From contig CAZELY010000003.1 in assembly GCA_964513345.1 (NCBI GenBank), positions 9,371-73,370 of the forward strand: a stretch of DNA of 64,000 nucleotides, given 5' to 3'. This DNA comes from an uncultured Muribaculaceae bacterium. GTDB lineage: Bacteria; Bacillota_I; Bacilli_A; RF39; UBA660. The notes below the pieces were generated by a model that was not told the origin of the DNA, did not search any database, and saw only the letters and a program-made list of their open reading frames with translations. A program made the position numbers and the translations under genes. Each line of letters starts with the position of its first letter. The stretch's first letter is position 1. Positions 268 through 62,928 of this stretch are shown here, piece after piece.

Positions 268-414
268 TGAAATTCTCCATTCATAGTGTTGCTTATACAA
301 TAATTATACAAAGTATTTAAAAAAAGGACAACATTTTTTATAAAAACTTTACACAGGAAATGTTTTCCTTGTAAAAATATAGTAATTAGTATAAAATAAT
401 AATAGGGTGATAAC

Positions 415-699
415 ATGAAAAAGAACGGATTTACACTAATAGAACTACTAGGTATTTTAGTATTACTTGGAATAATTATTTTAGTAGCTGTTCCCGCTAT
501 TATTAAATCAAACTCTACCGCTAAAACTAATGAAGGTAAAGAATTTGATCAAATAGCTAAAAATGCCTGTGAGGCATATGAAGCAGTATATGGTAAGGAT
601 GCAGCTAAAGATAAGACACTAGAAGAACTTAAAAATGCAGGTTACATACAAAAAGATTTGACTAAACCAAATGGAGCAACGTGGACTAAATGTTCTTAA
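415..699 (+). CDS. Prepilin-type N-terminal cleavage/methylation domain protein (small pseudopilin/ComGC-like)
   Basis: The N-terminus MKKNG|FTLIELLGILVLLGIII is a class III signal (G-1, F+1, E+5 plus a hydrophobic helix). It has a LKNAGYI motif and two Cys. It ends 24 nt before pgk with no terminator in between. Confidence 0.8.
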   Translation: MKKNGFTLIELLGILVLLGIIILVAVPAIIKSNSTAKTNEGKEFDQIAKNACEAYEAVYGKDAAKDKTLEELKNAGYIQKDLTKPNGATWTKCS

Positions 700-4058: not shown

Positions 4059-4113
4059 AAAGTTTATACTTTCTTTTTTTTAATTTCTATTATATAATTA
4101 TTATGGTGATACT

Positions 4114-4470
4114 ATGAAGAAAAATGGTTTTACATTAATTGAACTAGTAGGCGCAGTCGTTATTATAGCTATATTGGCATTAATCGCGTTTCCAGCCTTA
4201 GTTAGTATGTTAAATAAAGGTCAAGCTAAAATAGATAAATCAGTTAAGGAATTTGTTATGGCGGCTGTAGCGGAGTATGTTAATGATAATATTGATAGTT
4301 TAGGTACAAAACGTAGAATTGATGTAACTGCAGATTTAATAGAAAATGGGTATATTTCAACATCGTTTGCCGATAAGTACTGCGAAATCAAAAATGATTA
4401 TGTCATAATAGATTTGGGAACATCTTTAAAACAAAAATATCAGGAAGTCATGCCAGACGATAATTGTTAA
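4114..4470 (+). CDS. Prepilin-type N-terminal domain protein (pseudopilin-like)
   Basis: MKKNG|FTLIELVGAVVIIAILALIAFPAL, an LIENGYIS motif and a C-terminal Cys pair. It has its own -10 (TATAAT) and its own terminator (AAAACTATTT/AAATAGTTTTT). Confidence 0.8.
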   Translation: MKKNGFTLIELVGAVVIIAILALIAFPALVSMLNKGQAKIDKSVKEFVMAAVAEYVNDNIDSLGTKRRIDVTADLIENGYISTSFADKYCEIKNDYVIIDLGTSLKQKYQEVMPDDNC

Positions 4471-5059: not shown

Positions 5060-6034
5060 ATGTGGAAAATTGGCAATGTTGAAATTAATAATAAAGTTGT
5101 TTTAGCGCCGATGGCTGGCATTTCAAATAGTGCGTATCGTCGTATTGTAAAAGAGATGGGCTGTGGACTAGTTGTATGTGAAATGGTTAGTGATAAAGCT
5201 ATTTTTTATGGTAGTACAAAAACCATTGACATGCTTTACATGACCGATTTTGAAAGGCCAATTTCCCAACAAATATTTGGAAGTGATTTAGAAAGTTTTA
5301 AAGTCGCTGCCAAATTTATTGAAGAAAAGATGCATCCAGATATTATTGATATTAATATGGGTTGTCCAGTTCCAAAAGTTGCGACTAGAGCACAAGCTGG
5401 AAGTGCATTATTAAAAAATCCAGAAAAAGTGTATGAAATTGTAAAGGCCGTTGCTGATACTGTGTCAGTTCCAGTAACTGTTAAAATTAGAAGTGGTTGG
5501 GATGCTAATAGTATCAACGCTGTAGAAATTGCTAAAGTATGTGAGAAAGCCGGAGCTAGTGCGATTGCTATTCATCCACGAACTCGTAGTCAAGGATATA
5601 GTGGCAAAGCCGATTGGACAATTATTAAAAAAGTGAAAGAAAGTGTGAATATTCCAGTCATTGGCAATGGGGACATCAAAAATCCAATAGATGCCAAAAG
5701 AATGATAGATGAAACGGGTTGCGATGCTGTAATGATAGGAAGAGCAGCGATTGGGAACCCTTGGTTGATACGTGATACTATTGAATATCTAGAAAATGAA
5801 ACTATTTTAGAAAAGCCAAGTTATAGTGAAATAATTGAAATGATAAAAAAACATTTAAATTATTTATTGGAAACTAAGAAAGAAAATATTGCGGTTAAAG
5901 AAATGAGAACTCATATCAGCTATTATTTAAAAGGAATGCCAAAAAGCAGTGAAGTCAAAGAAAAAGTTTTTAAAGTAACAACTAAAGATGAATTATTTAG
6001 CATTTTAGATGACTATTTACAAAAATTATCATAA
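5060..6034 (+). CDS. dusB: tRNA-dihydrouridine synthase
   Basis: LAPMAGISNSAYR, the INMGCP catalytic Cys region and MIGRAAIGNPW. Confidence 0.9.
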   Translation: MWKIGNVEINNKVVLAPMAGISNSAYRRIVKEMGCGLVVCEMVSDKAIFYGSTKTIDMLYMTDFERPISQQIFGSDLESFKVAAKFIEEKMHPDIIDINMGCPVPKVATRAQAGSALLKNPEKVYEIVKAVADTVSVPVTVKIRSGWDANSINAVEIAKVCEKAGASAIAIHPRTRSQGYSGKADWTIIKKVKESVNIPVIGNGDIKNPIDAKRMIDETGCDAVMIGRAAIGNPWLIRDTIEYLENETILEKPSYSEIIEMIKKHLNYLLETKKENIAVKEMRTHISYYLKGMPKSSEVKEKVFKVTTKDELFSILDDYLQKLS

Positions 6035-9244: not shown

Positions 9245-10516
9245 ATGTTTGTTGATGAAGCGATAGTAGAACTTTTCGCTGGTGATGGTGGAAATGGATG
9301 TAAAGCCTTTAGAAGAGAAAAAGGAGTTCCACTAGGAGGACCATTTGGCGGAAATGGCGGAAAGGGCTCAAGCATTATTTTTAAGGTTGACAACGGTTTA
9401 AATACGTTAGTTGATTTTCGTTATAAAAGAATAATTAAAGGTTCAAACGGTGAAAATGGGCTTGGAAAAGGCATGAATGGCAAAAATGCCGAAGATATAG
9501 TTATCATGGTTCCACCAGGGACAGTAATTACTGATCTTCATACTAAATTAATTGTTGCTGATTTAATTAAAGAAGGAGATCAAGCAGTCATCGTTGAAGG
9601 CGGCCGTGGAGGAAGAGGTAACATTGCTTTTGCTACTAAAAATAATCCGGCTCCAGATTTTGCTGAAAATGGTGAACCAGGAGAATATAGAAAAATAAAA
9701 CTTGAACTAAAATTAATTGCTGATGTTGGTTTAGTAGGACTTCCTAGTGTCGGAAAATCTACAATAATTTCTCGAGTATCCTCATCAAAACCAAAAATTG
9801 CCGACTACCCATTTACAACATTAAAACCAAATTTAGGCGTTGTAAAAGTAGAAGATGGTCGTTCATTTGTTCTTGCTGATTTACCAGGATTAATTGAAGG
9901 CGCTTCATTAGGCCATGGATTAGGTGATCAATTTTTAAAACACATTGAAAGAACTAGAATAATCGCCCATATTATTGATATGGGTGGATATACTGGAAGA
10001 GACCCTTATAAAGATTATGAAATAATCAATAATGAATTAAAAGCATTTAATGAAAAAATATTAGAAAAACCACAGATTATTATTGCTAATAAAATGGATA
10101 TGATTAATGCTGAGGAAAACTTGAAAAAGTTTAAAGAGCAAGTTGATTTACCAGTTTATAAAGTATCTGCTGTGACTGGATATGGACTACGACAAGTAAT
10201 GGCAAAACTTGCCGATATGCTAGATGAAATACCTAAAAATAATTTATATGAGGAAGAAAAATTTGAAAGCCATGTAATTTATAAATTTAAAGAAGAAAAA
10301 CCATTTACAATTACTAAGGAAAATGATGCCTGGGTTATTAAAGGAAAACAAATAGAAAAACTTCTTCGTATGAGTAGATTTGATACCAACGAAGCTATAC
10401 TTAGATTTGCTGCTAAATTAAGAAAATTAGGTATTGATGATGAGCTTAGAAAATTAGGCGCTGAAGACGGAGATACAGTCAAAATATTAGATTATGAATT
10501 TGAATTTAGTGAATAA
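9245..10516 (+). CDS. obg: GTPase Obg/CgtA
   Basis: Glycine-rich Obg fold (GDGGNG.., GGRGGRGN), G domain (GLPSVGKST, DLPGLIEGA, NKMD) and the C-terminal OCT domain. Confidence 0.95.
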   Translation: MFVDEAIVELFAGDGGNGCKAFRREKGVPLGGPFGGNGGKGSSIIFKVDNGLNTLVDFRYKRIIKGSNGENGLGKGMNGKNAEDIVIMVPPGTVITDLHTKLIVADLIKEGDQAVIVEGGRGGRGNIAFATKNNPAPDFAENGEPGEYRKIKLELKLIADVGLVGLPSVGKSTIISRVSSSKPKIADYPFTTLKPNLGVVKVEDGRSFVLADLPGLIEGASLGHGLGDQFLKHIERTRIIAHIIDMGGYTGRDPYKDYEIINNELKAFNEKILEKPQIIIANKMDMINAEENLKKFKEQVDLPVYKVSAVTGYGLRQVMAKLADMLDEIPKNNLYEEEKFESHVIYKFKEEKPFTITKENDAWVIKGKQIEKLLRMSRFDTNEAILRFAAKLRKLGIDDELRKLGAEDGDTVKILDYEFEFSE

Positions 10517-10529
10517 CTAAATTCTTTTT
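10502..10529 (+). repeat. Direct repeat copy 1 (last four obg codons, stop codon and the obg terminator hairpin)
   Basis: GAATTTAGTGAATAACTAAATTCTTTTT, with stem GAATTTAG/CTAAATTC followed by a T-run. Identical to 11766-11793. Confidence 0.95.
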
Positions 10530-10606
10530 AATGTAAAGCAGAATAATAATTGTTTGTAAAAAAAGGTGAATTATGCTATATTTAATGTAGAAAATAGGGT
10601 GATTAT

Positions 10607-11656
10607 ATGAATAAAACAAAACAAAAAAATATATTTATCATTAGCTTACTAGCTATAGTACTAATAATGGCCGTAGGCTATGCAGCTTTCGCAACAAATC
10701 TAACGGTAAATGGGACAGCAAGTATTTCATCAAATTGGTGTATAGGGTTTGATAGTACTAAAACTACAGATTATGTAGCAAGTAAAACTCATTCTACTGG
10801 AGACACACCAACAGGAAGTATTTCATTTAGTGGAAATGCATGTCAGACTAACTATAAAACAAATGCATCTTTAGTAGCTAATTTTAAACAACCAGGAGAT
10901 AAAATAGAATATACCCTAACAATAGCAAATAAAGGAAGTTTAGCAGCAGCAATAGAAAGTATCTTAGTAGATAATAATAACGTAACATCTAATCAAACAA
11001 TAACAAAAGGAAATGTAAAATATACAATAGAGATGCCATTAGATACATCATTAGCAGAAAATGAAACCACAACCATGCAAATAACAGCGGAGTTTCAAAA
11101 TGATACAAATATAAGCACCTCTAGTACAAGTACAGAAACCATAAGTGTTCAAATTAATGCCACCCAAGATGATGGTAGTGGAGGCTTCACTCCAACCCCA
11201 GCAGCGCAAACAGTATACGCAATCAATACAAGTAGTATATATAAAAACACATCAACGCTACAAGATATAGGAACAACGTATAATAGTTGTTCCGCAACAG
11301 GGAAGAATACATGTATAAGATATACTATAGAAAATGATATCGTAACAGGAGCAGAAGCTTGCTTTGTAAAAGGCGGAACTGAGTATTGCCTAAAAGGCTG
11401 GGTAGATGAGTGCTTGTATGATGGTAACGATTGTACATTTACAGGAACACAAACAGTATATAATGCCAATAAAACAACATTACAAACAGCCTTTACAGAA
11501 ACAAATGCCTGTTCTGATATTGGCTATGATTTCGGCTGCGATGCTTCCGGTTTCGATGCCAGCGCCAATAATGAGGGCGGCGTCTATGCGTACGATGGCG
11601 GCTGGAGCTGCTATGTCTATTCAGATGGCAATGCCGACTGCAGCGACAGCAGTTAG
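10607..11656 (+). CDS. Secreted protein: TasA/SipW-type leader, TasA(camelysin)-like N-domain, six-Cys C-terminal module
   Basis: The leader ..IMAVGYA|AFATNLTVNGTAS parallels TasA ..GGTWA|AFNDIKS..ASGTLDL. NFKQPGDKIEYTLTIANKGSLAAAI parallels TasA NLKPGDKLTKDFQFENNGSLAIKEV. The C-terminal Cys-rich module is shared with 52331-52933 and 61948-62928. Confidence 0.65.
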   Translation: MNKTKQKNIFIISLLAIVLIMAVGYAAFATNLTVNGTASISSNWCIGFDSTKTTDYVASKTHSTGDTPTGSISFSGNACQTNYKTNASLVANFKQPGDKIEYTLTIANKGSLAAAIESILVDNNNVTSNQTITKGNVKYTIEMPLDTSLAENETTTMQITAEFQNDTNISTSSTSTETISVQINATQDDGSGGFTPTPAAQTVYAINTSSIYKNTSTLQDIGTTYNSCSATGKNTCIRYTIENDIVTGAEACFVKGGTEYCLKGWVDECLYDGNDCTFTGTQTVYNANKTTLQTAFTETNACSDIGYDFGCDASGFDASANNEGGVYAYDGGWSCYVYSDGNADCSDSS

Positions 11657-11765
11657 TAGCCTAGTTGCGGTCCGCCCATCTTGAAATCTTGAATCCTTCA
11701 AGATAAAGGAAAGGCAAAATGTGTTTGCTATAAGCAAATTAATATAAAATAACAAAACATTTTAA

Positions 11766-11793
11766 GAATTTAGTGAATAACTAAATTCTTTTT
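11766..11793 (+). repeat. Direct repeat copy 2 (fossil obg 3' end and terminator, now terminating the cassette gene)
   Basis: Letter-for-letter identical to 10502-10529. The T-run is longer here. Confidence 0.95.
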
Positions 11794-11859
11794 TTGTCGA
11801 CTGAAAACATGTGTATATATATAAGATTATCATAGAATATATATGAAAGGAGAAATATC

Positions 11860-14133
11860 ATGTTTGCTAATTTTGAAGAAGAGGCTAGAAAAGTTTTAGT
11901 AATGGCTAAAAAAGAAATGCTTGATTTAAAACATCCTTATGTTTCATCTGAACACCTTCTACTTGCTATTTTAAGAAACAAAAATGAAGTATCTGAAAGA
12001 TTATTAAATTATGATATAAATTATACTCTTATAAAAAATGAAATTATTAAAATAATTGGTAAAGGTTCAAAAGAAAGTGAATATTTTTTATATACACCAC
12101 TTTTAAAAAGAATTATTGAAAATGCCTCGTTTGATGCCAAAGAAAACAACAAAAACACCGTCACCATAAATCATTTATTTTCATCATTATTAGAAGAAGG
12201 CGAAGGTGTAGCCATTAGAATATTAATTGGCATGGGAATTGATGTAGATCAGTTATATAGTGAATTTGCTTTTAAATTAATTAATAAAAGCAAGTCAAAA
12301 AAAATGCTTTTGGAACAGTTAGGTATCGATTTAAATAAAAAAGCTTTAAATAACGAAATAGATCCAATCACGGGAAGACATAGTGAAATTAATAGAGTGT
12401 TGGAAATATTATCTAGAAGAACCAAAAATAATCCGTTGTTAATTGGTGAAGCCGGAGTGGGAAAAACCGCAATCGTTGAAGGCATTGCCAGTAAAATAGT
12501 AAGTGGAGAAGTACCAATATCTTTAAAAAACAAAAGAATAATCAGTTTAGATATGGGGTCTTGTGTAGCTGGAACAAAATATCGCGGAGAATTTGAAGAA
12601 AGGATCCATAAAATTTTAAAAGAGCTCGAACAAAATAATGATATAATTCTTTTTATCGATGAGATTCATACATTAGTAGGAGCCGGAGGCGCTGAAGGCG
12701 CCATCGACGCTTCTAATTTATTTAAACCGGCTTTGGCTAGGGGAACTATTAGATGTATTGGGGCAACAACCACCGATGAATACAAAAAATATATTGAAAG
12801 GGAGGGAGCTTTAGAAAGAAGATTTCAAAAAGTAACAATTAAAGAGGCCAATCAAGAAGAAGTAAAAAATATTCTTTTGAATTTGAAAAACATTTATGAA
12901 AGTTACCACAAAGTAATCATAAATGAAGAAATAATAGATTTGATTGTTAATTTGTCAAAAAAATATATTTATAACCGCAAAGAACCAGATAGATCAATCG
13001 ACATATTAGATGAAGTATGTGCCAAAACCAGTTTAAAAGAAAGCAAAGATTTAATTAGATATAATACCAGCACTAAAAAATTAAAAGAAATCACCAGCAA
13101 AAAGAAAAAAGCAATCATTGATAATAATTTTTTAAAAGCGGCAGATTACAAAAAAGAAGAATGTAAATTAATGAATGAAATTAATAATTTAGAACTAAGT
13201 CTTTATAAACCAAAATTTAAAAAGGTAACAAAATATGATGTTGCGAGAGTAATTAATAATAAAACAGGAATTCCAGTTTATGAAATATTCGGTCAAAAAA
13301 GCAAAGAAAACAATTTAAAGCAAAAAATAATTGGACAAAATGAAGCTATTAAACAAGTAACTAATATTGCCAAAAAAATAAAAATGGGTTTAAATGATAA
13401 ATGTTATTCAATGCTTTTTTGCGGACCATCGGGGGTTGGAAAAACTGAACTTGCTAAAGTGTTTGGGGAAACGTTGGTTGGAAAAGATAATGTGATTAAA
13501 ATAGATTGCTCAGAATATAAAGAAGCCCATAGCATTTCCAAAATTATAGGTGCCCCACCAGGTTATGTTGGGTATGATGAAAATAATGTTTTAGAAGAAA
13601 TTAAAAACAAACCATATTCGGTTTTAATCTTAGACGAAATTGAAAAAGCTCATAACGATATTATAAATTTGTTTTTAGGTGTTTTAGACGAAGGTGTAAT
13701 TAAAAACAATAAAACAAAAACGATAAATTTTGATAACGTTGTTATTATTTTGACCTCTAATATTGGATTTCATAATATTAATGTCGGCTTTGTTAATAAT
13801 GATGATTTTAAAACAAAATTGAATGACAAATTTTCTATTCCCTTTATGAATAGAGTGGATAATGTTGTTATTTTTAATAATTTAACTAAAGAGGATATTA
13901 TTAAAATAACAAACAAAAAAATTAAAAAGTTGAAAAATAAATATAAAAATAAAATACTTATTAGAATTGGCAAACAAGTAATAGAAGACATCGTTGACAA
14001 ATCAAATTACGAGCAATATGGTGCCAGAAGAATAAGTAAAATAATTAAAGATGATATAGAAACGCAAATAATAGAAGCATTATTAAATAGAAAAGAAACA
14101 ATTTACATTAAAAAAACATTACAAAAAGTATAG
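11860..14133 (+). CDS. clpC: ATP-dependent Clp protease ATP-binding subunit ClpC
   Basis: Clp_N repeats, two AAA+ modules (GEAGVGKTAIVEG and GPSGVGKTELAK) and a UVR-like linker (FLKAADYKKEE). Confidence 0.9.
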   Translation: MFANFEEEARKVLVMAKKEMLDLKHPYVSSEHLLLAILRNKNEVSERLLNYDINYTLIKNEIIKIIGKGSKESEYFLYTPLLKRIIENASFDAKENNKNTVTINHLFSSLLEEGEGVAIRILIGMGIDVDQLYSEFAFKLINKSKSKKMLLEQLGIDLNKKALNNEIDPITGRHSEINRVLEILSRRTKNNPLLIGEAGVGKTAIVEGIASKIVSGEVPISLKNKRIISLDMGSCVAGTKYRGEFEERIHKILKELEQNNDIILFIDEIHTLVGAGGAEGAIDASNLFKPALARGTIRCIGATTTDEYKKYIEREGALERRFQKVTIKEANQEEVKNILLNLKNIYESYHKVIINEEIIDLIVNLSKKYIYNRKEPDRSIDILDEVCAKTSLKESKDLIRYNTSTKKLKEITSKKKKAIIDNNFLKAADYKKEECKLMNEINNLELSLYKPKFKKVTKYDVARVINNKTGIPVYEIFGQKSKENNLKQKIIGQNEAIKQVTNIAKKIKMGLNDKCYSMLFCGPSGVGKTELAKVFGETLVGKDNVIKIDCSEYKEAHSISKIIGAPPGYVGYDENNVLEEIKNKPYSVLILDEIEKAHNDIINLFLGVLDEGVIKNNKTKTINFDNVVIILTSNIGFHNINVGFVNNDDFKTKLNDKFSIPFMNRVDNVVIFNNLTKEDIIKITNKKIKKLKNKYKNKILIRIGKQVIEDIVDKSNYEQYGARRISKIIKDDIETQIIEALLNRKETIYIKKTLQKV

Positions 14134-34777: not shown

Positions 34778-35290
34778 ATGAAAAGAGATAATTGGATTTT
34801 AATTATATTTATATTAACGTTCATATTGTCTTTTTTATTTAGTTCTATTTCTAATTTAATTTCCAATTTTAATATAGTTGCGATGATAATAATATTACTT
34901 GCTACTATATGCTTTGGTGTTGTTTTCGATATGATTGGTGTTGCCGTATTAAGTGCTAATGAAGCCACTTTTCATGCTAAAGCAGCTAACAAAATATATG
35001 GATCTAAAAAGAGTATAGAACTAATTAAAAATGCCAATAGAACTAGTAGTATTTGTAATGACGTTGTCGGTGATATTTGTGGAATTATTTCTGGTGCTCT
35101 AGCAGCTGGATTAATTATCATGCTGTGGGATACGCCAATTTTTGCTGCCATAATTACAGCTATTGTTTCGAGCCTTACGGTTGGCTTTAAAGCCATCGGT
35201 AAAAAAATGGCCATTAAACATGCTGACAATATTGTGGAAAAAGTTGGCATTATTATTAGTAGAATAGAATTTAAAAGAAAAGAAAAATAG
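34778..35290 (+). CDS. Small four-TM membrane protein with basic loops (OapA-like position)
   Basis: 170 aa with four hydrophobic helices, acidic motifs in the helices (FDMIGVA, NDVVGDICG), and Lys/Arg-rich loop and tail. Lies directly downstream of the structured RNA. Confidence 0.6.
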   Translation: MKRDNWILIIFILTFILSFLFSSISNLISNFNIVAMIIILLATICFGVVFDMIGVAVLSANEATFHAKAANKIYGSKKSIELIKNANRTSSICNDVVGDICGIISGALAAGLIIMLWDTPIFAAIITAIVSSLTVGFKAIGKKMAIKHADNIVEKVGIIISRIEFKRKEK

Positions 35291-35308: not shown

Positions 35309-36205
35309 TTATTGACCTTCTACATAATAAGCATAATATTCTTCTAAAGTAAGGTTTTCATCTTTAATTATTTTAGCTACTTCTTTTCCGACATAGCGGT
35401 AGTGCCATGATTCATAAGTATACCCTGTAACATCTTCTTTATTCTTTGGAAATCTTAAAATAAATCCATATTTATGAGCGTTTTTATCTAGCCATTTAAA
35501 AGCATCAGTGTTTTCAAATCCACTATTTATTTGATTAATATCGGTAGCTAAGCCAGTTTGATGTTCAGAAAAACCAGGCCTTGCTGAATATGTATCAGCG
35601 GCTTCTTTGCCATCTTTGGAAACGTAGTTATTGTATAAAGTAACTTGGTAGTCATAGCTTCTAAAAGCGGATGCATTTTTAATCGAAATATTTTCTAGCA
35701 ATGCGGCATTACTCATTTCCATAAATGCATCAGCGGCCACTTTACGCATTGTATTGTTTTTGCCAATATTATATTCATCGGTTAATACAACTAGATCATT
35801 AGGTATATAATTATCTTTCAAATAGTAATATTTATTTACTAACATTAGATTACCTTTACTTAAATCTGTTTCAAAAACATCTTTGTATTTTTCTTTGTCT
35901 AAATTGGCATTAACATCAGTAATAACTTTATTTAGTGATAAACTATTATTCTTATTGTAATAGTCGACATAGCGTTTCAAATTGTTTTTGATAAAATACT
36001 TTTCTTGCGCTAATTTTTCTTCAAGTGTAATTTCATCTTTGGTGTTGTCTTTTGTATCTTCTGTAACATTTGCTTGTTTCACATTATCACCAGTTTCTTT
36101 TGGGTTATTAGTAATAAAATAAATTCCTATTATAATTAATACTATGAATATAAATAAAACAATACTTTTATTTTTTTTCTTTCTTTTTCGAACCATCGCT
36201 AACAT
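35309..36205 (-). CDS. Membrane-anchored M15B (VanY-type) D,D-carboxypeptidase
   Basis: SEHQTGLATDI and ESWHYRYVG zinc-site motifs, plus an N-terminal TM. Confidence 0.85.
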   Translation of the reverse strand: MLAMVRKRKKKNKSIVLFIFIVLIIIGIYFITNNPKETGDNVKQANVTEDTKDNTKDEITLEEKLAQEKYFIKNNLKRYVDYYNKNNSLSLNKVITDVNANLDKEKYKDVFETDLSKGNLMLVNKYYYLKDNYIPNDLVVLTDEYNIGKNNTMRKVAADAFMEMSNAALLENISIKNASAFRSYDYQVTLYNNYVSKDGKEAADTYSARPGFSEHQTGLATDINQINSGFENTDAFKWLDKNAHKYGFILRFPKNKEDVTGYTYESWHYRYVGKEVAKIIKDENLTLEEYYAYYVEGQ

Positions 36206-37154
36206 CCTTATCTAAATAAAATGCATAATATTCATCATATGTCAAACCAGAATTTTTAACTTTAGTGGCTAAATCTTGACCTAAATAACGGTAGTGCCAA
36301 GATTCATAAGAATAGCCTGTAATATTTTCTTTATCCTTAGGATACCTTAAAATAAAGCCGTATTTATGAGCATTTTTACTAAGCCATTTGAAAGCATCGG
36401 TCTGGTCAAAGTTTTTACCATTTGCTCCATAAGTAATAATATCAATAGCTAAACCGGTTTGGTGTTCAGAGTGATTTGGTCTAGCAGCATAGCCATCAGC
36501 ATATTCTTCACCTTTAGTGTTTTTATAATTATCATATAATCCTTTTTGATATTCATAAGTGCGAAAACCAGAATTTATGATTAGAGTTATATTTTCTTTT
36601 TTGGCAGCGTTAAACATATTCTTAAAAGCATCATATACTTCGCTTCTTAAACTATTATCACCATAGGCATATTGATTACTGGCTTTTACAAGATCTTCGG
36701 GTTTATATTTTTCAGGCAAAGAATAATACTTATTAACTAAAATCGAATATCCATTATCCATATTAGTTTCTTTAATGTGAGTATAGTAATCATAATTACG
36801 TTTAACATTTACAATAGTAATAATTTCGCTGTAATCTATTTTATTAGTTTCTTGTTTTTTCTTATTTATATATTCCTTATAAGTATTATAGTTTTTCCAA
36901 ATAAAGTATTTTTCGCTAGTTAAAGGAATTAACTCTTTATCATATTTTGTTAGCGCTTTATCGATAACTTTTTGGTCTGATTTTATTAGTGTGCTAATTT
37001 CGCTTTCATTGTACCCAATCTGACCAAGTTTATATTCATAACTATTATAATATTTATATAGTTTAAAACCAACAATTCCGCCAATTATCAGTAACACAAA
37101 AATTATTAAAATAACGATTGGCCATTTTTTAATTCTTCTTCTTGTTTGATACAT
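36168..37154 (-). CDS. Membrane-anchored M15B (VanY-type) D,D-carboxypeptidase, tandem paralog
   Basis: SEHQTGLAIDI and ESWHYRYLG, plus an N-terminal TM. The start is taken at MYQTRRR (37154). Confidence 0.85.
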   Translation of the reverse strand: MYQTRRRIKKWPIVILIIFVLLIIGGIVGFKLYKYYNSYEYKLGQIGYNESEISTLIKSDQKVIDKALTKYDKELIPLTSEKYFIWKNYNTYKEYINKKKQETNKIDYSEIITIVNVKRNYDYYTHIKETNMDNGYSILVNKYYSLPEKYKPEDLVKASNQYAYGDNSLRSEVYDAFKNMFNAAKKENITLIINSGFRTYEYQKGLYDNYKNTKGEEYADGYAARPNHSEHQTGLAIDIITYGANGKNFDQTDAFKWLSKNAHKYGFILRYPKDKENITGYSYESWHYRYLGQDLATKVKNSGLTYDEYYAFYLDKDVSDGSKKKEKK

Positions 37155-37279
37155 AAAGTCACTACCTTTCATAACAAAATTGTATCATAGTTTTTACACT
37201 TTAAAAAAAGAAAAATTTGTTTTTTGATTTACGATGTAAAGTAAAAGTGATATAATGTAATAAAGAATAGGGTGAATCT

Positions 37280-46923: not shown

Positions 46924-46989
46924 AGACTTTATAAAAAGTCTTTTTGTTTATACTTGAATTAAACTTTAATTTGTACTATAATTATTTTA

Positions 46990-47200
46990 ATTGCGATGAA
47001 TAAGAGTAGTAATAATTTATTTGTTTTAAAGAGAGAAAACGGTTGGTGAAAGTTTTTAAATAAAGGTTATGAACTTACTTAGGAGCTGCATATATGATAA
47101 GTATATGCCGTATGTGGTGCGTTAAACTATTGAGATAATTAAAGCATTATAAAATAAGGTGGTACCACGTTCAATACGTCCTTATGCATAATGCTTTTTA
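46990..47200 (+). promoter_or_regulatory. T-box leader (Leu, specifier CUU)
   Basis: Promoter TTGAAT-17 nt-TATAAT (46954-46982). Stem I elements AGAGA and GGTTGGTGAAAG, a GAA-CUU-A specifier at 47071-47077, the T-box AAGGTGGTACCACG at 47156-47169, and a terminator ending in TTTTT. Confidence 0.85.
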
Positions 47201-52933: not shown

Positions 52934-52975
52934 TAGATTATTGACAAAACAAACATAAAAGATTATAATTTATAG

Positions 52976-53190
52976 AAAACGAAGAACAAGAGGAGTAGAG
53001 TATATATTTTTTAAAGAGAGTTAGTGGTTGGTGAAAACTAATAAAAATAATATTTGAAGGTAGCTTGGGAGTTGATGCACGAATAGTTAATGTACTCCGC
53101 TAAAACGGCGTTATTGTTTTAAGGTAATTAATAATTACAAATTAAGGTGGTACCACGTGCAAAACGTCCTTATACAGGGGCGTTTTTTTA
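52976..53190 (+). promoter_or_regulatory. T-box leader (Val, specifier GUA)
   Basis: Promoter TTGACA-17 nt-TATAAT (52941-52969). AGAGAG and GGTTGGTGAAAAC, specifier region GAAGGUAG at 53056-53063, the T-box AAGGTGGTACCACG, and the terminator AACGTCC..GGGGCGTTTTTTT. Confidence 0.85.
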
Positions 53191-61879: not shown

Positions 61880-61898
61880 GTGTCAACCTACTTTTTTT
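61874..61898 (+). terminator. Terminator after tmk
   Basis: AAGTAGGT-gtca-ACCTACTT followed by T7. Confidence 0.8.
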
Positions 61899-61947
61899 GT
61901 TGTTGAAAATAAATAAAAAATCGATTATAATTAAAATGGGTGAGAGC

Positions 61948-62928
61948 ATGAGTAAAAAAGGGTTTACGTTAATCGAATTACTTGTTGTAATTGTTATACT
62001 TGCAATTATTGCTTTAGTAGCTGTCCCGGTGATAATTGGTGTCATTAATAGTTCCAAAGAAAAAGCATATCAGGAACAGGAAAGAGCTATTGTCACAGCA
62101 GCTAGAAATTATATTGCTAAAAATTCAAAAGAAATGCCAACAATGAAAGGTGCAAGTAAATGTATACCGGTTGAAACTTTAAAAAACGCTGGATTATTAA
62201 AAGATCAGACAATTCAAAATCCAGTTGGAGTTAATTATAAAGATTACACCGAAAAAGATGACAATTTTAACGGCGGTGTTTTAGTTGAAAATAATAACAA
62301 CAATTATACATATAATTATGTTGATGACTGCTCAACTATAACATTTACTGGAACGATATATAGAAATAATCAAGTTGGAGCAGGCATTGGAAGTTCGATA
62401 ATACCAGTAAGTGGGACTAAGTACGTTATAACTAACGGCGAGTATGTTGCCCCAGTTGGCCCATATAATAGTCAAAATGAATGCCAAACGGCATTAACAG
62501 AACATGGGGCCCCCGAAGAATTTTATTGTGAAAAACAAACTGGAACATTTGGGGGAATCGGTGAATACACAAAAGATGCTTCAGGTTTGAATAAAAAACA
62601 TTATTTAAAACACGAAGTAGTAGACAATATAATAACTGCATCATATGCATGTTTTGTAACGGACAAAGAATATTGTATGCAAGGGGGAAATGCATCTTAT
62701 TATGCTGCCAACCAAGCAATATTACAAAGCCAAGATGCGTGGTTTAATAACAGCGATGGTTACTGCTATATTGAATCTGAATTTTCAGGTTGTTACAGTT
62801 ATAATAAATATAATATTGGTGCAAATTCATATGGTGAGGTTTATACTAGATCATCTGACATTCTTGGATGTATAGTGGAGAAAGATGGCTTTTCCCACTG
62901 TAATAAAAGAGAAGAATCGGCTATGTAG
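61948..62928 (+). CDS. Type IV pilin-like protein carrying the six-Cys C-terminal module
   Basis: MSKKG|FTLIELLVVIVILAIIALVAVPVI, a pilin-type Cys pair (KC..DC) and a LKNAGLL motif. These are followed by an extra roughly 190-aa region ending in ACFVTDKEYCMQGGN..C-x8-C-x25-C-x9-C. Confidence 0.8.
   Translation: MSKKGFTLIELLVVIVILAIIALVAVPVIIGVINSSKEKAYQEQERAIVTAARNYIAKNSKEMPTMKGASKCIPVETLKNAGLLKDQTIQNPVGVNYKDYTEKDDNFNGGVLVENNNNNYTYNYVDDCSTITFTGTIYRNNQVGAGIGSSIIPVSGTKYVITNGEYVAPVGPYNSQNECQTALTEHGAPEEFYCEKQTGTFGGIGEYTKDASGLNKKHYLKHEVVDNIITASYACFVTDKEYCMQGGNASYYAANQAILQSQDAWFNNSDGYCYIESEFSGCYSYNKYNIGANSYGEVYTRSSDILGCIVEKDGFSHCNKREESAM

Follow-up and report, generated by a model that had tools for sequence, protein, structure and literature searches.

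The window, the whole 64-kb stretch of DNA analysed here, derives from an uncultured gut Bacilli species of a lineage without cultured representatives, and it raises the question of how the extreme 3' end of obg, with its stop codon and terminator hairpin, came to stand on both sides of a neighbouring gene. An earlier note on this DNA had read the interval as a single-gene insertion into the obg terminator. The cassette gene is here labelled cas, and the features of the locus are as follows.

9245 to 10516, plus strand: obg, open reading frame for the GTPase ObgE, 423 aa (Pfam GTP1_OBG 2e-55, MMR_HSR1, DUF1967)
10502 to 10529, plus strand: copy 1 (T1), the last four obg codons, TAA stop, hairpin and 5-T tract
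10530 to 11694, plus strand: shared cas expression unit (promoter, open reading frame and conserved 3'UTR), also present at a second locus
10554 to 10582, plus strand: promoter-like site TTGTAA-17 nt-TATATT with an extended -10 TG (TGCTATATT)
10607 to 11656, plus strand: cas open reading frame, 349 aa, without a Pfam or NCBIfam match
11501 to 11656, plus strand: hypervariable GC-rich C-terminal tail of the cas open reading frame
11657 to 11694, plus strand: conserved 3'UTR element TAGCCTAGTTGCGGTCCGCCCATCTTGAAATCTTGAAT, right edge of the shared unit
11686 to 11704, plus strand: hairpin ATCTTGAA-TCC-TTCAAGAT (-6.5 kcal/mol, z -2.5)
11695 to 11765, plus strand: 71-nt spacer specific to the obg locus, between the shared unit and copy 2
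11766 to 11793, plus strand: copy 2 (T2), displaced duplicate of the obg end and terminator
11796 to 11859, plus strand: clpC promoter and 5'UTR with the core TCATAGAAT..GAAAGGAG, kept in the relatives L089, L095 and L099
11860 to 14133, plus strand: clpC-like AAA+ ATPase gene

The repeat (GAATTTAGTGAATAACTAAATTCTTTTT) is located at exactly two sites in the 64 kb, 10502-10529 and 11766-11793, both on the plus strand and with 0 mismatches, as had been claimed from the sequence, and no third site with 3 or fewer mismatches exists on either strand of the window. Its chance expectation is 0 (100 shuffles gave 0 matches), and it cannot be extended, as TTT stands opposite TAA upstream and A opposite T after the fifth T. 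The two copies are identical in every same-species assembly spanning them, the divergent strain L005 included, and since identical copies are found in contigs from four other samples produced with different assemblers (L001, L002/L006, L003 and L005), the repeat is not an assembly artefact. Among the other loci compared, an exact 23-nt core is matched only by same-species contigs covering the obg-cas-clpC locus, with no match in the 21-kb contig L102, which is assigned to the same species. Hairpins of the form TTTAG..CTAAA followed by a T-run occur in 1.27 Mb of related DNA only at the obg-end and cas-terminator sites treated here. In viral contigs neither the site (queried as the 23-mer) nor Obg fragments nor the cas family were found, and an Rfam search over 10300-12000 returned nothing credible.

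In T1 the codons GAA TTT AGT GAA (EFSE) and the subsequent TAA are part of a hairpin in which 10502-10510 pairs with 10516-10524, the arms being GAATTTAG(T)/(A)CTAAATTC, with a fold of -8.8 kcal/mol (z -3.8) followed by 5 U. A 5' arm made of the last obg codons characterises the obg terminator in this lineage. Because the same hairpin spans the obg stop codon in L091, the closest relative (82% identity in Obg), T1 is, on comparative grounds, the native obg terminator, its T-tract apparently cut from seven to five through the insertion, which makes T2 the displaced duplicate. No cas gene lies near the L091 hairpin, which bears out the view of the earlier note that the second copy is a displaced obg end. 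Behind the L091 hairpin stands ancestral DNA (CCATAATTTCCC, then RR-HK) that L009 also has at this place, so that the obg-end hairpin predates cas and is independent of it. The upstream order RNase HII, a 72-aa gene, DUF5684 and obg is common to the window and L009, and RNase HII and obg are also found in L091.

Copy 2 lacks an obg body, since a TAA is located directly upstream and in frame. Its stem is extended (11764-11774 with 11780-11790) and its 7-T tract ends at 11795, giving a fold of -10.6 kcal/mol (z about -3.8) with two additional A-U pairs compared to T1 and 7 U; the AA to its left pairs with the U-tract and merely lengthens the stem. A TTTAA left of T2, as in L009, was discarded as too short to count in AT-rich DNA, and ACATTTTA, which forms the right end in the window and the left flank in L093, is likewise too short to carry weight in such DNA. 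Neither T1 nor T2 was called by a consensus terminator scan, as the stem has only 2 G-C pairs. Both, with a stem-loop and a U-tract right after an open reading frame, have the make-up of intrinsic (Rho-independent) terminators, and hairpin, U-tract and location, along with a compensatory change of the stem in L009 (GAATATAG/CTATATTC), suggest that they terminate transcription. T2 would then serve as the cas terminator and as an insulator ahead of clpC, downstream of which the order asnB (minus strand), a 402-aa gene (minus strand) and alr (minus strand) is common to relatives.

The interval between the copies contains the extended -10 promoter, the one open reading frame, the GC-rich tail and the odd hairpin that had been described for it. 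The stretch 10550-10606 is 100% identical in L093 and L094, while the allele of L005 and L126 differs at 5 positions. The cas protein consists of an N-terminal hydrophobic helix, a beta-sandwich domain, a GSGGFTPTP linker and a Cys-rich C-terminal domain, with the residues C45, C79, C252, C261, C302, C311 and C335 invariant in the alignment, and is probably a variable secreted protein. Its 218 homologues, none of them named, form a multi-copy family confined to uncultured gut and rumen Bacilli. The description of the gene as 'TasA-like' does not hold: no Pfam family is matched at E<=0.1 and nothing relevant in NCBIfam at E<=1, and a Foldseek search of the PDB with the AlphaFold2 model (pLDDT 82) gave no match with E<=0.001 and no TasA in the top 50. 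A loose resemblance to TasA in an N-terminal AAF(A/S)T motif is all that remains by our own reading. The zone 11475-11699 has 49-54% GC against about 30%, and identity between cas alleles falls from 87-99% in the N-domain to 57-85% in the tail. The 3'UTR element at 11657..11694 is 95-100% identical in the window, L005, L127 and L126, and 63-66% identical when compared to L093. The 3' arm of the hairpin at 11686..11704 is specific to the obg locus, absent in L093 and L126, and marks the point where homology with the second locus stops.

The NNC-rich hypervariable tail, the conserved GC-rich element and a hairpin resembling a VR with IMH suggested a DGR target. This was rejected: the window holds no second copy of 11400-11800 that could be a template repeat, the Pfam lists of the neighbourhoods examined contain no RT, and among the allele differences are many synonymous C/T third-position changes as well as indels, which fit mosaic recombination and not A-to-N mutagenesis.

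At the second locus the cas unit is located between alaS and a P-type ATPase gene. In a blastn comparison L093 covers 10530-11702 of the window, beginning directly behind T1. The contig L126 also has its start at AATGTAAAG (= 10530) and matches to about 11694-11702. The left boundary of the insert is thus sharp, and the earlier note was right to regard the interval as inserted DNA. On the right the shared unit ends at 11694, 71 nt short of T2, and the right junction of the incoming DNA is therefore undefined. Compared to the second locus the 71-nt spacer has 41-45% identity, which is background; it has no homologue in the loci compared outside the window species, is present in L127 and is partly divergent in L005. 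A homology of the spacer to the second-locus terminator and ATPase promoter, suggestive by eye, was dropped, as global alignment gave only this identity.

The cas alleles are mosaic. Those of L005 (obg locus) and L126 (second locus) are 100% identical in the promoter and 99% in the N-domain, but only 79% in the C-domain and 65% in the tail, and such shuffling of alleles between loci is a pattern typical of surface variation. The window cas protein is 82-93% identical to copies at other loci, 75% to the tandem paralogue P0005 and 53% to the copy in L089. Bracketing by terminators as a general property of the family was considered and rejected, using 25 cas-family genes (230 nt upstream against 300 nt downstream) and a cross-pair null: the only outliers are the window and L005, plus two cases of tandem duplication, L102 and L092. 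The L102 bracket is in our reading not an insertion, but rather a tandem gene duplication with an internal deletion between CAAGAT microhomologies.

A parallel insertion is found in L091. There the insert joins the same terminator T-tract on its left after T6 of T7 (T5 of T7 in the window), the displaced second copy reads GAATTTAGTGATTAACTAAATTC plus T7, and the cargo of the 2.5-kb insert is different, namely a DUF4176 gene with two further genes of unknown function. The insert is flanked by a duplication of the obg 3' end of 186 nt with 96% identity. The last 70 nt of this repeat contain three coding mismatches, all at synonymous third positions, as would be expected of two obg alleles (donor and recipient) and not of fossil decay. 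Neither the L091 insert nor its flanking 10 kb contains an integrase or transposase. This insertion is independent of the one in the window and shows that such events recur. Type VII secretion genes are located upstream in L091.

All contigs with the window-type Obg also carry the cassette junction. An empty site (obg, a single T and clpC) was found in no strain or relative sampled, and the pre-insertion state is for that reason inferred. The search for empty sites proposed in the earlier note was uninformative, because the obg-clpC adjacency is unique to the window species, as judged from an Obg scan of 80 genomes, the closest Obg homologues and ClpC homologues. In none of the 80 relatives is clpC downstream of obg (in L036 it lies about 5 kb upstream), and in none does the obg end recur downstream over at least 17 nt, save for an unrelated 41-nt repeat in L061. 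A cas-family gene at obg is absent in most of them, distant ones being present in L022, L032, L033 and L034.

The reading judged somewhat probable is a duplicative, recombination-mediated insertion (single-crossover or homology-anchored) of the cas unit into the T-tract of the obg terminator. A self-contained unit, composed of promoter, open reading frame and 3'UTR plus the 71 nt, would have recombined into the native terminator and doubled 28 nt, leaving an identical T2 behind the new gene. The likeliest route would be recombination-dependent and need no transposase: incoming or circularised DNA with a short homology to the obg 3' end could have entered by a single crossover or, alternatively, been held by a homologous anchor and joined illegitimately upstream of the anchor's end. 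Either would put the homologous segment on both sides of the insert, and the presumed direction of transfer is into the obg locus. T1, with 5 U left, would still end obg, cas would be transcribed from its own extended -10 promoter, and T2, with its longer stem and 7 U, would end cas and shield clpC. This fits the finding that the repeat is a stretch of chromosomal homology and that the insert is foreign to the locus in most relatives. Besides the lack of an empty site and the 71 nt that separate the shared unit from T2, several observations count against the insertion. A repeat of 28 nt is short for a RecA-dependent crossover, and in four relatives a cas-family gene directly follows obg without duplication. 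L127, of the same species and with downstream DNA 99-100% identical, has cas, the 71 nt, T2 and clpC behind a different 232-nt upstream flank lacking obg and T1, and L089 (Obg 73% identical) has the order cas-clpC-asnB-402-alr without obg. Thus, of the earlier claim of a lone cassette placed between obg and clpC, the foreign nature of the insert stands, whereas the L127 flank and the cas-clpC arrangement of L089 mean that this is not the sole possible history.

These same two arrangements favour a synteny breakpoint, in which obg was moved by a rearrangement to an older block, cas-(71 nt)-terminator-clpC, and the 28-nt identity is secondary, through gene conversion or microhomology-mediated repair between similar AT-rich hairpins. 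The L089 cas terminator (AAACTTTAG..CTAAAGTTTTTTTTGTC) and the TTTTTTTGTC following it resemble T2, its clpC promoter is clearly orthologous, L115 has a similar terminator (AACTTTAG..CTAAAGTT) directly 3' of a cas-family gene, and the DNA upstream of clpC and downstream of obg is rearranged in every relative examined. However, the 28/28 identity takes in a 7-nt loop and 15 nt of the obg reading frame, which convergence would not be expected to produce, and gene conversion is improbable where two sites agree at only about 70% over about 25 nt. The match to the second locus sets in directly behind T1, and because the nearest counterparts of the window cas stand at other loci and the L089 gene is much more distant, orthology with the latter is doubtful. 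A breakpoint origin is therefore regarded as unlikely. A discrete segment flanked by direct repeats could also result from the target-site duplication of a transposon or from a terminator repeat dispersed in the manner of REP elements. Target-site duplications of transposons and IS elements are short (2-14 bp), though, and the repeats of 28 nt and 186 nt (L091) are far beyond this range; the two ends of the cassette (AATGTAAAG... and ...CATTTTAA) do not form an inverted repeat, and the Pfam hits of the neighbouring genes include no transposase. Nor is the 28-mer REP-like, its core and comparable hairpins being restricted, in the DNA compared, to the sites already described, and this explanation is effectively refuted.

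Site-specific integration, with the 28-mer as the att identity segment and the cassette as a decayed, integrase-less element resembling a CIME (as defined in PMC5704250), would leave a repeat of a housekeeping gene's 3' end with the gene kept intact, as is seen here. A recombinase encoded elsewhere might then still excise or mobilise the cassette. The repeats in the window and L091 are both target-derived identity segments (28 nt and 186 nt), share their right limit in the T-tract and differ in cargo and length, as expected if separate elements brought along longer or shorter pieces of the target gene. Against this, no integrase, transposase or other recombinase is present in either insert or within about 10 kb according to the Pfam lists of neighbours, as had been noted for the window, and neither an empty attB nor excision products, nor any such polymorphism, occur among the assemblies sampled. 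The second locus of the cassette has no flanking att-like repeat or 28-mer-like site, and the viral contigs lack the site, Obg fragments and the cas family. The idea that the interval could loop out between att cores thus found no support, and a site-specific origin is considered quite unlikely.

Known systems resemble the proposed recombinational insertion in part. In Campbell-type insertion-duplication a segment is likewise repeated directly on both sides of an insert, the target gene stays intact and the element need not encode an enzyme. When circularised fragments integrate by a single crossover, the insert ends up between duplicates of the homologous locus that are 109-950 bp long (PMC3240628); the 186 nt of L091 fall within this range, whereas the 28 nt of the window are much shorter, the circular donor would have to be assumed here, and the events are natural ones that have become fixed in the species. 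Homology-facilitated illegitimate recombination in natural transformation (PMC3240628, introduction) also joins foreign DNA illegitimately at one end while a conserved gene serves as anchor at the other, and the synonymous differences in L091 fit donor and recipient alleles, although its classic outcome is an insertion with a recipient deletion and not a duplication as here. Pilin-like genes with N_methyl motifs, possibly of competence type, are carried in the window. Elements integrating into gene 3' ends share with this locus the repeat of a conserved gene end and the fossil end on the far side of the insert, and CIMEs the att-core repeat length and the lack of an integrase in the remnant. 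Among such elements, e14 and phage 21 integrate in the 3' end of the housekeeping gene icd of E. coli, and ICESt1 and ICESt3 in fda with repeats of about 27 bp. They differ in that here no integrase is near, no excision or empty-site polymorphism is seen, and the cargo is one gene, present at another locus too but there without such repeats; to our knowledge no att site has been described at an obg terminator hairpin. Variable surface-protein (contingency) families subject to gene conversion between paralogues have similarly mosaic alleles with variation in a C-terminal tail, but no silent-cassette archive, invertase or DGR was found here.

A more far-reaching version, to which only a slender chance is given, is that the obg terminator T-tract is the specific target of an undescribed mechanism without an integrase in cis. 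Either a recombinase acting in trans, or capture coupled to a hairpin or to termination, would then have loaded varied cargo behind obg repeatedly while duplicating variable lengths of the obg 3' end: 28 nt with a surface-protein gene in the window, 186 nt with a DUF4176 gene in L091 and possibly a decayed scar in L009 and L010. The direct repeats would in that case permit loop-out.

The best reading is that the locus is a scar of recombinational insertion and not an active mobile element, and known biology is not overturned by the mechanism suggested. If true, it would be a natural example of the end of an essential, conserved gene used as a landing pad, where DNA is added behind obg without damage and the duplication itself supplies a terminator, which would also protect clpC. 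In related uncultured gut Bacilli this T-tract has received two independent insertions with different cargo, which points to a hot spot of recombination, and the cargo in the window is a promoter-bearing unit of a large, unannotated family of Cys-rich, putatively secreted proteins.

The 28-nt sequence GAATTTAGTGAATAACTAAATTCTTTTT occurs at 10502-10529 (T1, at the end of obg) and at 11766-11793 (T2, before clpC), with no third match at three or fewer mismatches and with 0 matches in 100 dinucleotide-preserving shuffles. Contigs from four further samples, made with different assemblers, carry both copies unchanged, and so does the divergent strain L005 among them, although its allele of the enclosed gene has only 82% identity. 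The perfect direct repeat described in the earlier note is thus confirmed by mismatch search, shuffles and independent assemblies, and is real and non-random. In T1 the bases GAA TTT AGT GAA TAA represent the final four codons and the stop of obg, and double as the 5' arm and loop of a hairpin with CTAAATTC as its 3' arm. The T1 RNA fold (-8.8 kcal/mol) is followed by five U, and that of T2 (-10.6 kcal/mol, with two A-U pairs added by the flanks) by seven. Because an in-frame TAA stands before T2, this copy has no obg body, in line with its earlier description as a fossil obg end. The promoter, single ORF, GC-rich tail and odd hairpin reported inside the interval are all present:

9245-10516, obg, with GTP1_OBG, MMR_HSR1 and DUF1967 domains, ending in T1
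10554-10582, promoter-like site with an extended -10, between T1 and T2
10607-11656, ORF of 349 aa, here called cas for convenience, the sole ORF between T1 and T2
11686-11704, small hairpin between T1 and T2
between T1 and T2, GC-rich zone of 49-54% versus about 30%

In L091, the closest relative reached (Obg 82% identical to that of the window), obg ends with GAATTTAGTGATTAA and the same 3' arm as T1, the terminator overlaps the obg stop codon as in the window, and there is no cas gene at that place. The relatives L009 and L010 (Obg 80%) carry a free-standing hairpin, GAATATAG-GAAGAA-CTATATTC followed by T7, 13 nt past the obg stop, with a stem that differs from T1 by a compensatory pair. 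Downstream of the hairpin all three have the common DNA CCATAATTTCCC, and the two examined further (L009 and L091) a response regulator and then a histidine kinase. As these relatives have the obg hairpin before common downstream DNA, it is, judged by this comparison, the native obg terminator of the clade, with T1 in place and T2 as the displaced duplicate that the earlier note had taken it for. A motif, CCATAATTTCCCA(C/T)A, recurs across many related species just past the obg terminator (L009 at about 5990-6005; L091 as a tandem pair at 12009-12046 and 12107-12144; also L010, L018, L026, L029, L054, L056, L059, L076 and L080), with none in the window.

Relatives, a second locus and L091 provide three lines of evidence by which the T1-T2 interval reads as an insertion, as first proposed. 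In the 80 related genomes fetched with Obg, other genes are found downstream of obg, clpC in none of them, and an obg-end repeat of at least 17 nt was not found, save an unrelated 41-nt repeat in L061. The promoter-ORF-3'UTR unit of cas is also located between tRNA-synthetase and P-type ATPase genes (contigs L093, L094 and L126), where blastn homology to the window extends from 10530, the first base past T1, to about 11700; contig L126 starts at exactly the equivalent of base 10530, where the assembly graph would branch. At the same obg terminator L091 holds a 2.5-kb insert of three genes (101 aa, a DUF4176 protein and 582 aa), with type VII secretion genes (EssC, WXG100) upstream, and beyond the insert come a second obg 3' end (96% identical), an intact terminator and the ancestral downstream DNA:

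L091 9101-9286 and 11821-12006, direct repeat of the obg 3' end, 186 nt, bracketing the 2.5-kb insert

The fossil obg end of L091 was called as a 64-aa DUF1967 ORF. The junction lies in the terminator T-tract, after the sixth of seven T in L091 and the fifth of seven in the window, and the L091 insertion is independent of that in the window, at the same place. Within their last 70 nt the L091 repeat copies differ at three coding sites, all of them synonymous third positions (p about 0.04), so that the copies may represent two obg alleles (donor and recipient) rather than fossil decay, which three sites render only suggestive.

The explanation adopted here is a duplicative, recombination-mediated insertion into the T-tract of the obg terminator. 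Single-crossover integration of a circularised fragment would leave the insert between two homologous segments, and duplications of 109-950 bp are documented for such events (PMC3240628), compared to 28 nt and 186 nt here; the same architecture would result if obg served as a homologous anchor and an illegitimate join were made upstream of where that anchor ends. After insertion T1, left with only five U, may leak, cas would run from its own promoter, and T2 would end cas transcription and insulate clpC. The core idea of the earlier note, a displaced obg end that marks the insertion and donates a terminator, is upheld by these sequences. The same picture would be expected from a site-specific recombinase that recognises an att site in the obg end; this would explain neatly why the inserts in the window and L091 have a common right limit of the repeat, and mirrors elements targeting housekeeping-gene 3' ends and their integrase-less remnants (CIMEs; PMC5704250). 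However, neither insert has a recombinase in or near it, no empty site was found, and the second locus of the cassette is without an att-like repeat. The active excisable cassette or att core suggested previously therefore has no direct support. The reported lack of an integrase or transposase in or beside the cassette extends to about 10 kb around it.

Also alive is a history of rearrangement and conversion that would have brought obg next to cas-T2-clpC. The empty site (obg, single terminator, clpC) that the earlier note proposed to look for is found in none of the strains or relatives in the data, obg-clpC adjacency is seen only in this species among the loci compared, and the region upstream of clpC differs per relative (polC in L095, a PD-(D/E)XK gene in L099, cas in L089). 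In L089 (Obg 73%) the order is cas-terminator-clpC-asnB-402aa-alr, without obg, and the cas terminator, AAACTTTAG-AAAATTT-CTAAAGTTT plus TTTTTTTGTC, resembles T2, as does that after a cas-family gene in L115. The same-species contig L127 (1.6 kb) is 99-100% identical downstream (71-nt spacer, T2, clpC start); its positions 1-232 are a different flank upstream of cas, with a (TA)13 microsatellite, another promoter resembling that of a truncated cas paralogue, and no obg or T1 within these 232 nt. That strain has additional DNA separating obg from cas, or else its cas-T2-clpC block is situated away from obg; the flank points to structural polymorphism at the cas locus within the species. Moreover, the unit common to the second locus stops at 11694, and the 71 nt from there to T2 have no detectable homologue outside this species in the fetched loci. 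In four of the 80 relatives a distant cas-family gene directly follows obg without obg-end duplication, which reflects long-standing linkage or else a hot spot:

L022 about 7466, distant cas-family gene downstream of obg
L032 7581, the same
L033 5355, the same
L034 7437, the same

A history of rearrangement and conversion nevertheless has to account for a 28/28 identity that takes in 15 coding nt of obg as well as a loop of 7 nt, something that convergence cannot do. Several other candidates were rejected. A transposon is contradicted by repeats of 28 and 186 nt and by the lack of a transposase and of terminal inverted repeats, a phage link by the absence of the 23-nt core, Obg and the cas family from viral contigs, and a known RNA element by an Rfam search of 10300-12000 with no credible hit. 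The dispersed REP-like element at many terminators, named earlier as the refuting case, was not seen: the 28-mer occurs only twice in 64 kb, its exact 23-nt core matches, among other fetched loci, only same-species contigs covering the obg-clpC locus, and in 1.27 Mb of DNA from relatives hairpins of this kind are confined to the sites named in this text. A DGR target was tested because a GC-rich, NNC-rich hypervariable tail precedes a conserved GC-rich element; the window has no template repeat, no neighbourhood examined has a reverse transcriptase, and indels and synonymous C/T changes are among the differences between alleles.

The host belongs to the uncultured Bacilli of gut and rumen; its species is absent from 185,579 representative genomes (best Obg match 80%), and its relatives are labelled 'Bacilli bacterium', 'uncultured Tenericutes' or 'Candidatus Coprosoma'. 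The 218 homologues of cas, none of them named, all derive from uncultured gut/rumen Bacilli-type metagenome-assembled genomes, several per genome. A confident AlphaFold2 model (40 homologues as input, pLDDT 82) predicts a hydrophobic helix at the N-terminus, then a beta-sandwich (about residues 28-190) and, past a Gly/Pro linker, an alpha/beta domain at the C-terminus; in this last domain the alignment shows five invariant cysteines and one nearly invariant. As cas matches no Pfam or NCBIfam family and its model gave nothing significant with Foldseek against the PDB, the former label 'TasA-like' is unsupported; as far as the evidence goes, the product is a putatively secreted or membrane-anchored, Cys-rich, variable protein. 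The L005 allele at the obg locus and the L126 allele at the second locus are 100% identical in the promoter and 99% in the N-domain, but only 79% in the C-domain and 65% in the tail, and the C-domain of the window allele has 96% identity to that of L126; variation peaks in the tail (11501-11656) whichever alleles are compared (window, L005, L126, L127, L093). The alleles (unit 10530-11694) are thus mosaics exchanged between two loci, in a family that diversifies through recombination among paralogues. The same-species contig L102 has a tandem cas pair, one truncated (187 aa, N-domain only, 9345-9908) and one full-length (341 aa, 10001-11026), each with the terminator AATTAAAAACCAGT..ACTGGTTTTTT behind it; the shorter gene seems to have lost the segment between two CAAGAT microhomologies, one in the domain linker and one in the 3'UTR. 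Three type IV pilin-like N-termini (N_methyl motif) are found in the window (405-504, 4104-4203 and 61938-62037). In ORF 61897-62928 the C-terminal part (62342-62692) is 70-79% identical in DNA to the C-terminal parts of L092 genes that resemble cas, which suggests an exchange of C-domains between N-termini of the pilin-like and the cas-like kind.

Elsewhere in the window, a full-length OLE (ornate large extremophilic) RNA (RF01071; 34255-34772, plus strand, 229 bits against a gathering score of 50) lies directly 5' of a 170-aa ORF (34778-35290). Two T-box leaders (RF00230, plus strand; 46987-47186 and 52973-53174, 125 and 123 bits), also recovered as direct-repeat families D4 and D8, precede a 122-aa ORF (then 804 aa) and an 857-aa ORF, respectively. 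A 159-nt direct repeat, 79% identical (35360-35518 and 36252-36410), lies inside the adjacent minus-strand ORFs 35309-36205 and 36168-37172, probably tandem paralogues.

A mechanism dedicated to insertion at terminators is considered improbable. Duplication of a conserved gene 3' end around inserted DNA is known; new here is a duplication shrunk to the terminator hairpin, with no recombinase in cis, at a T-tract where such an event has occurred in two lineages.
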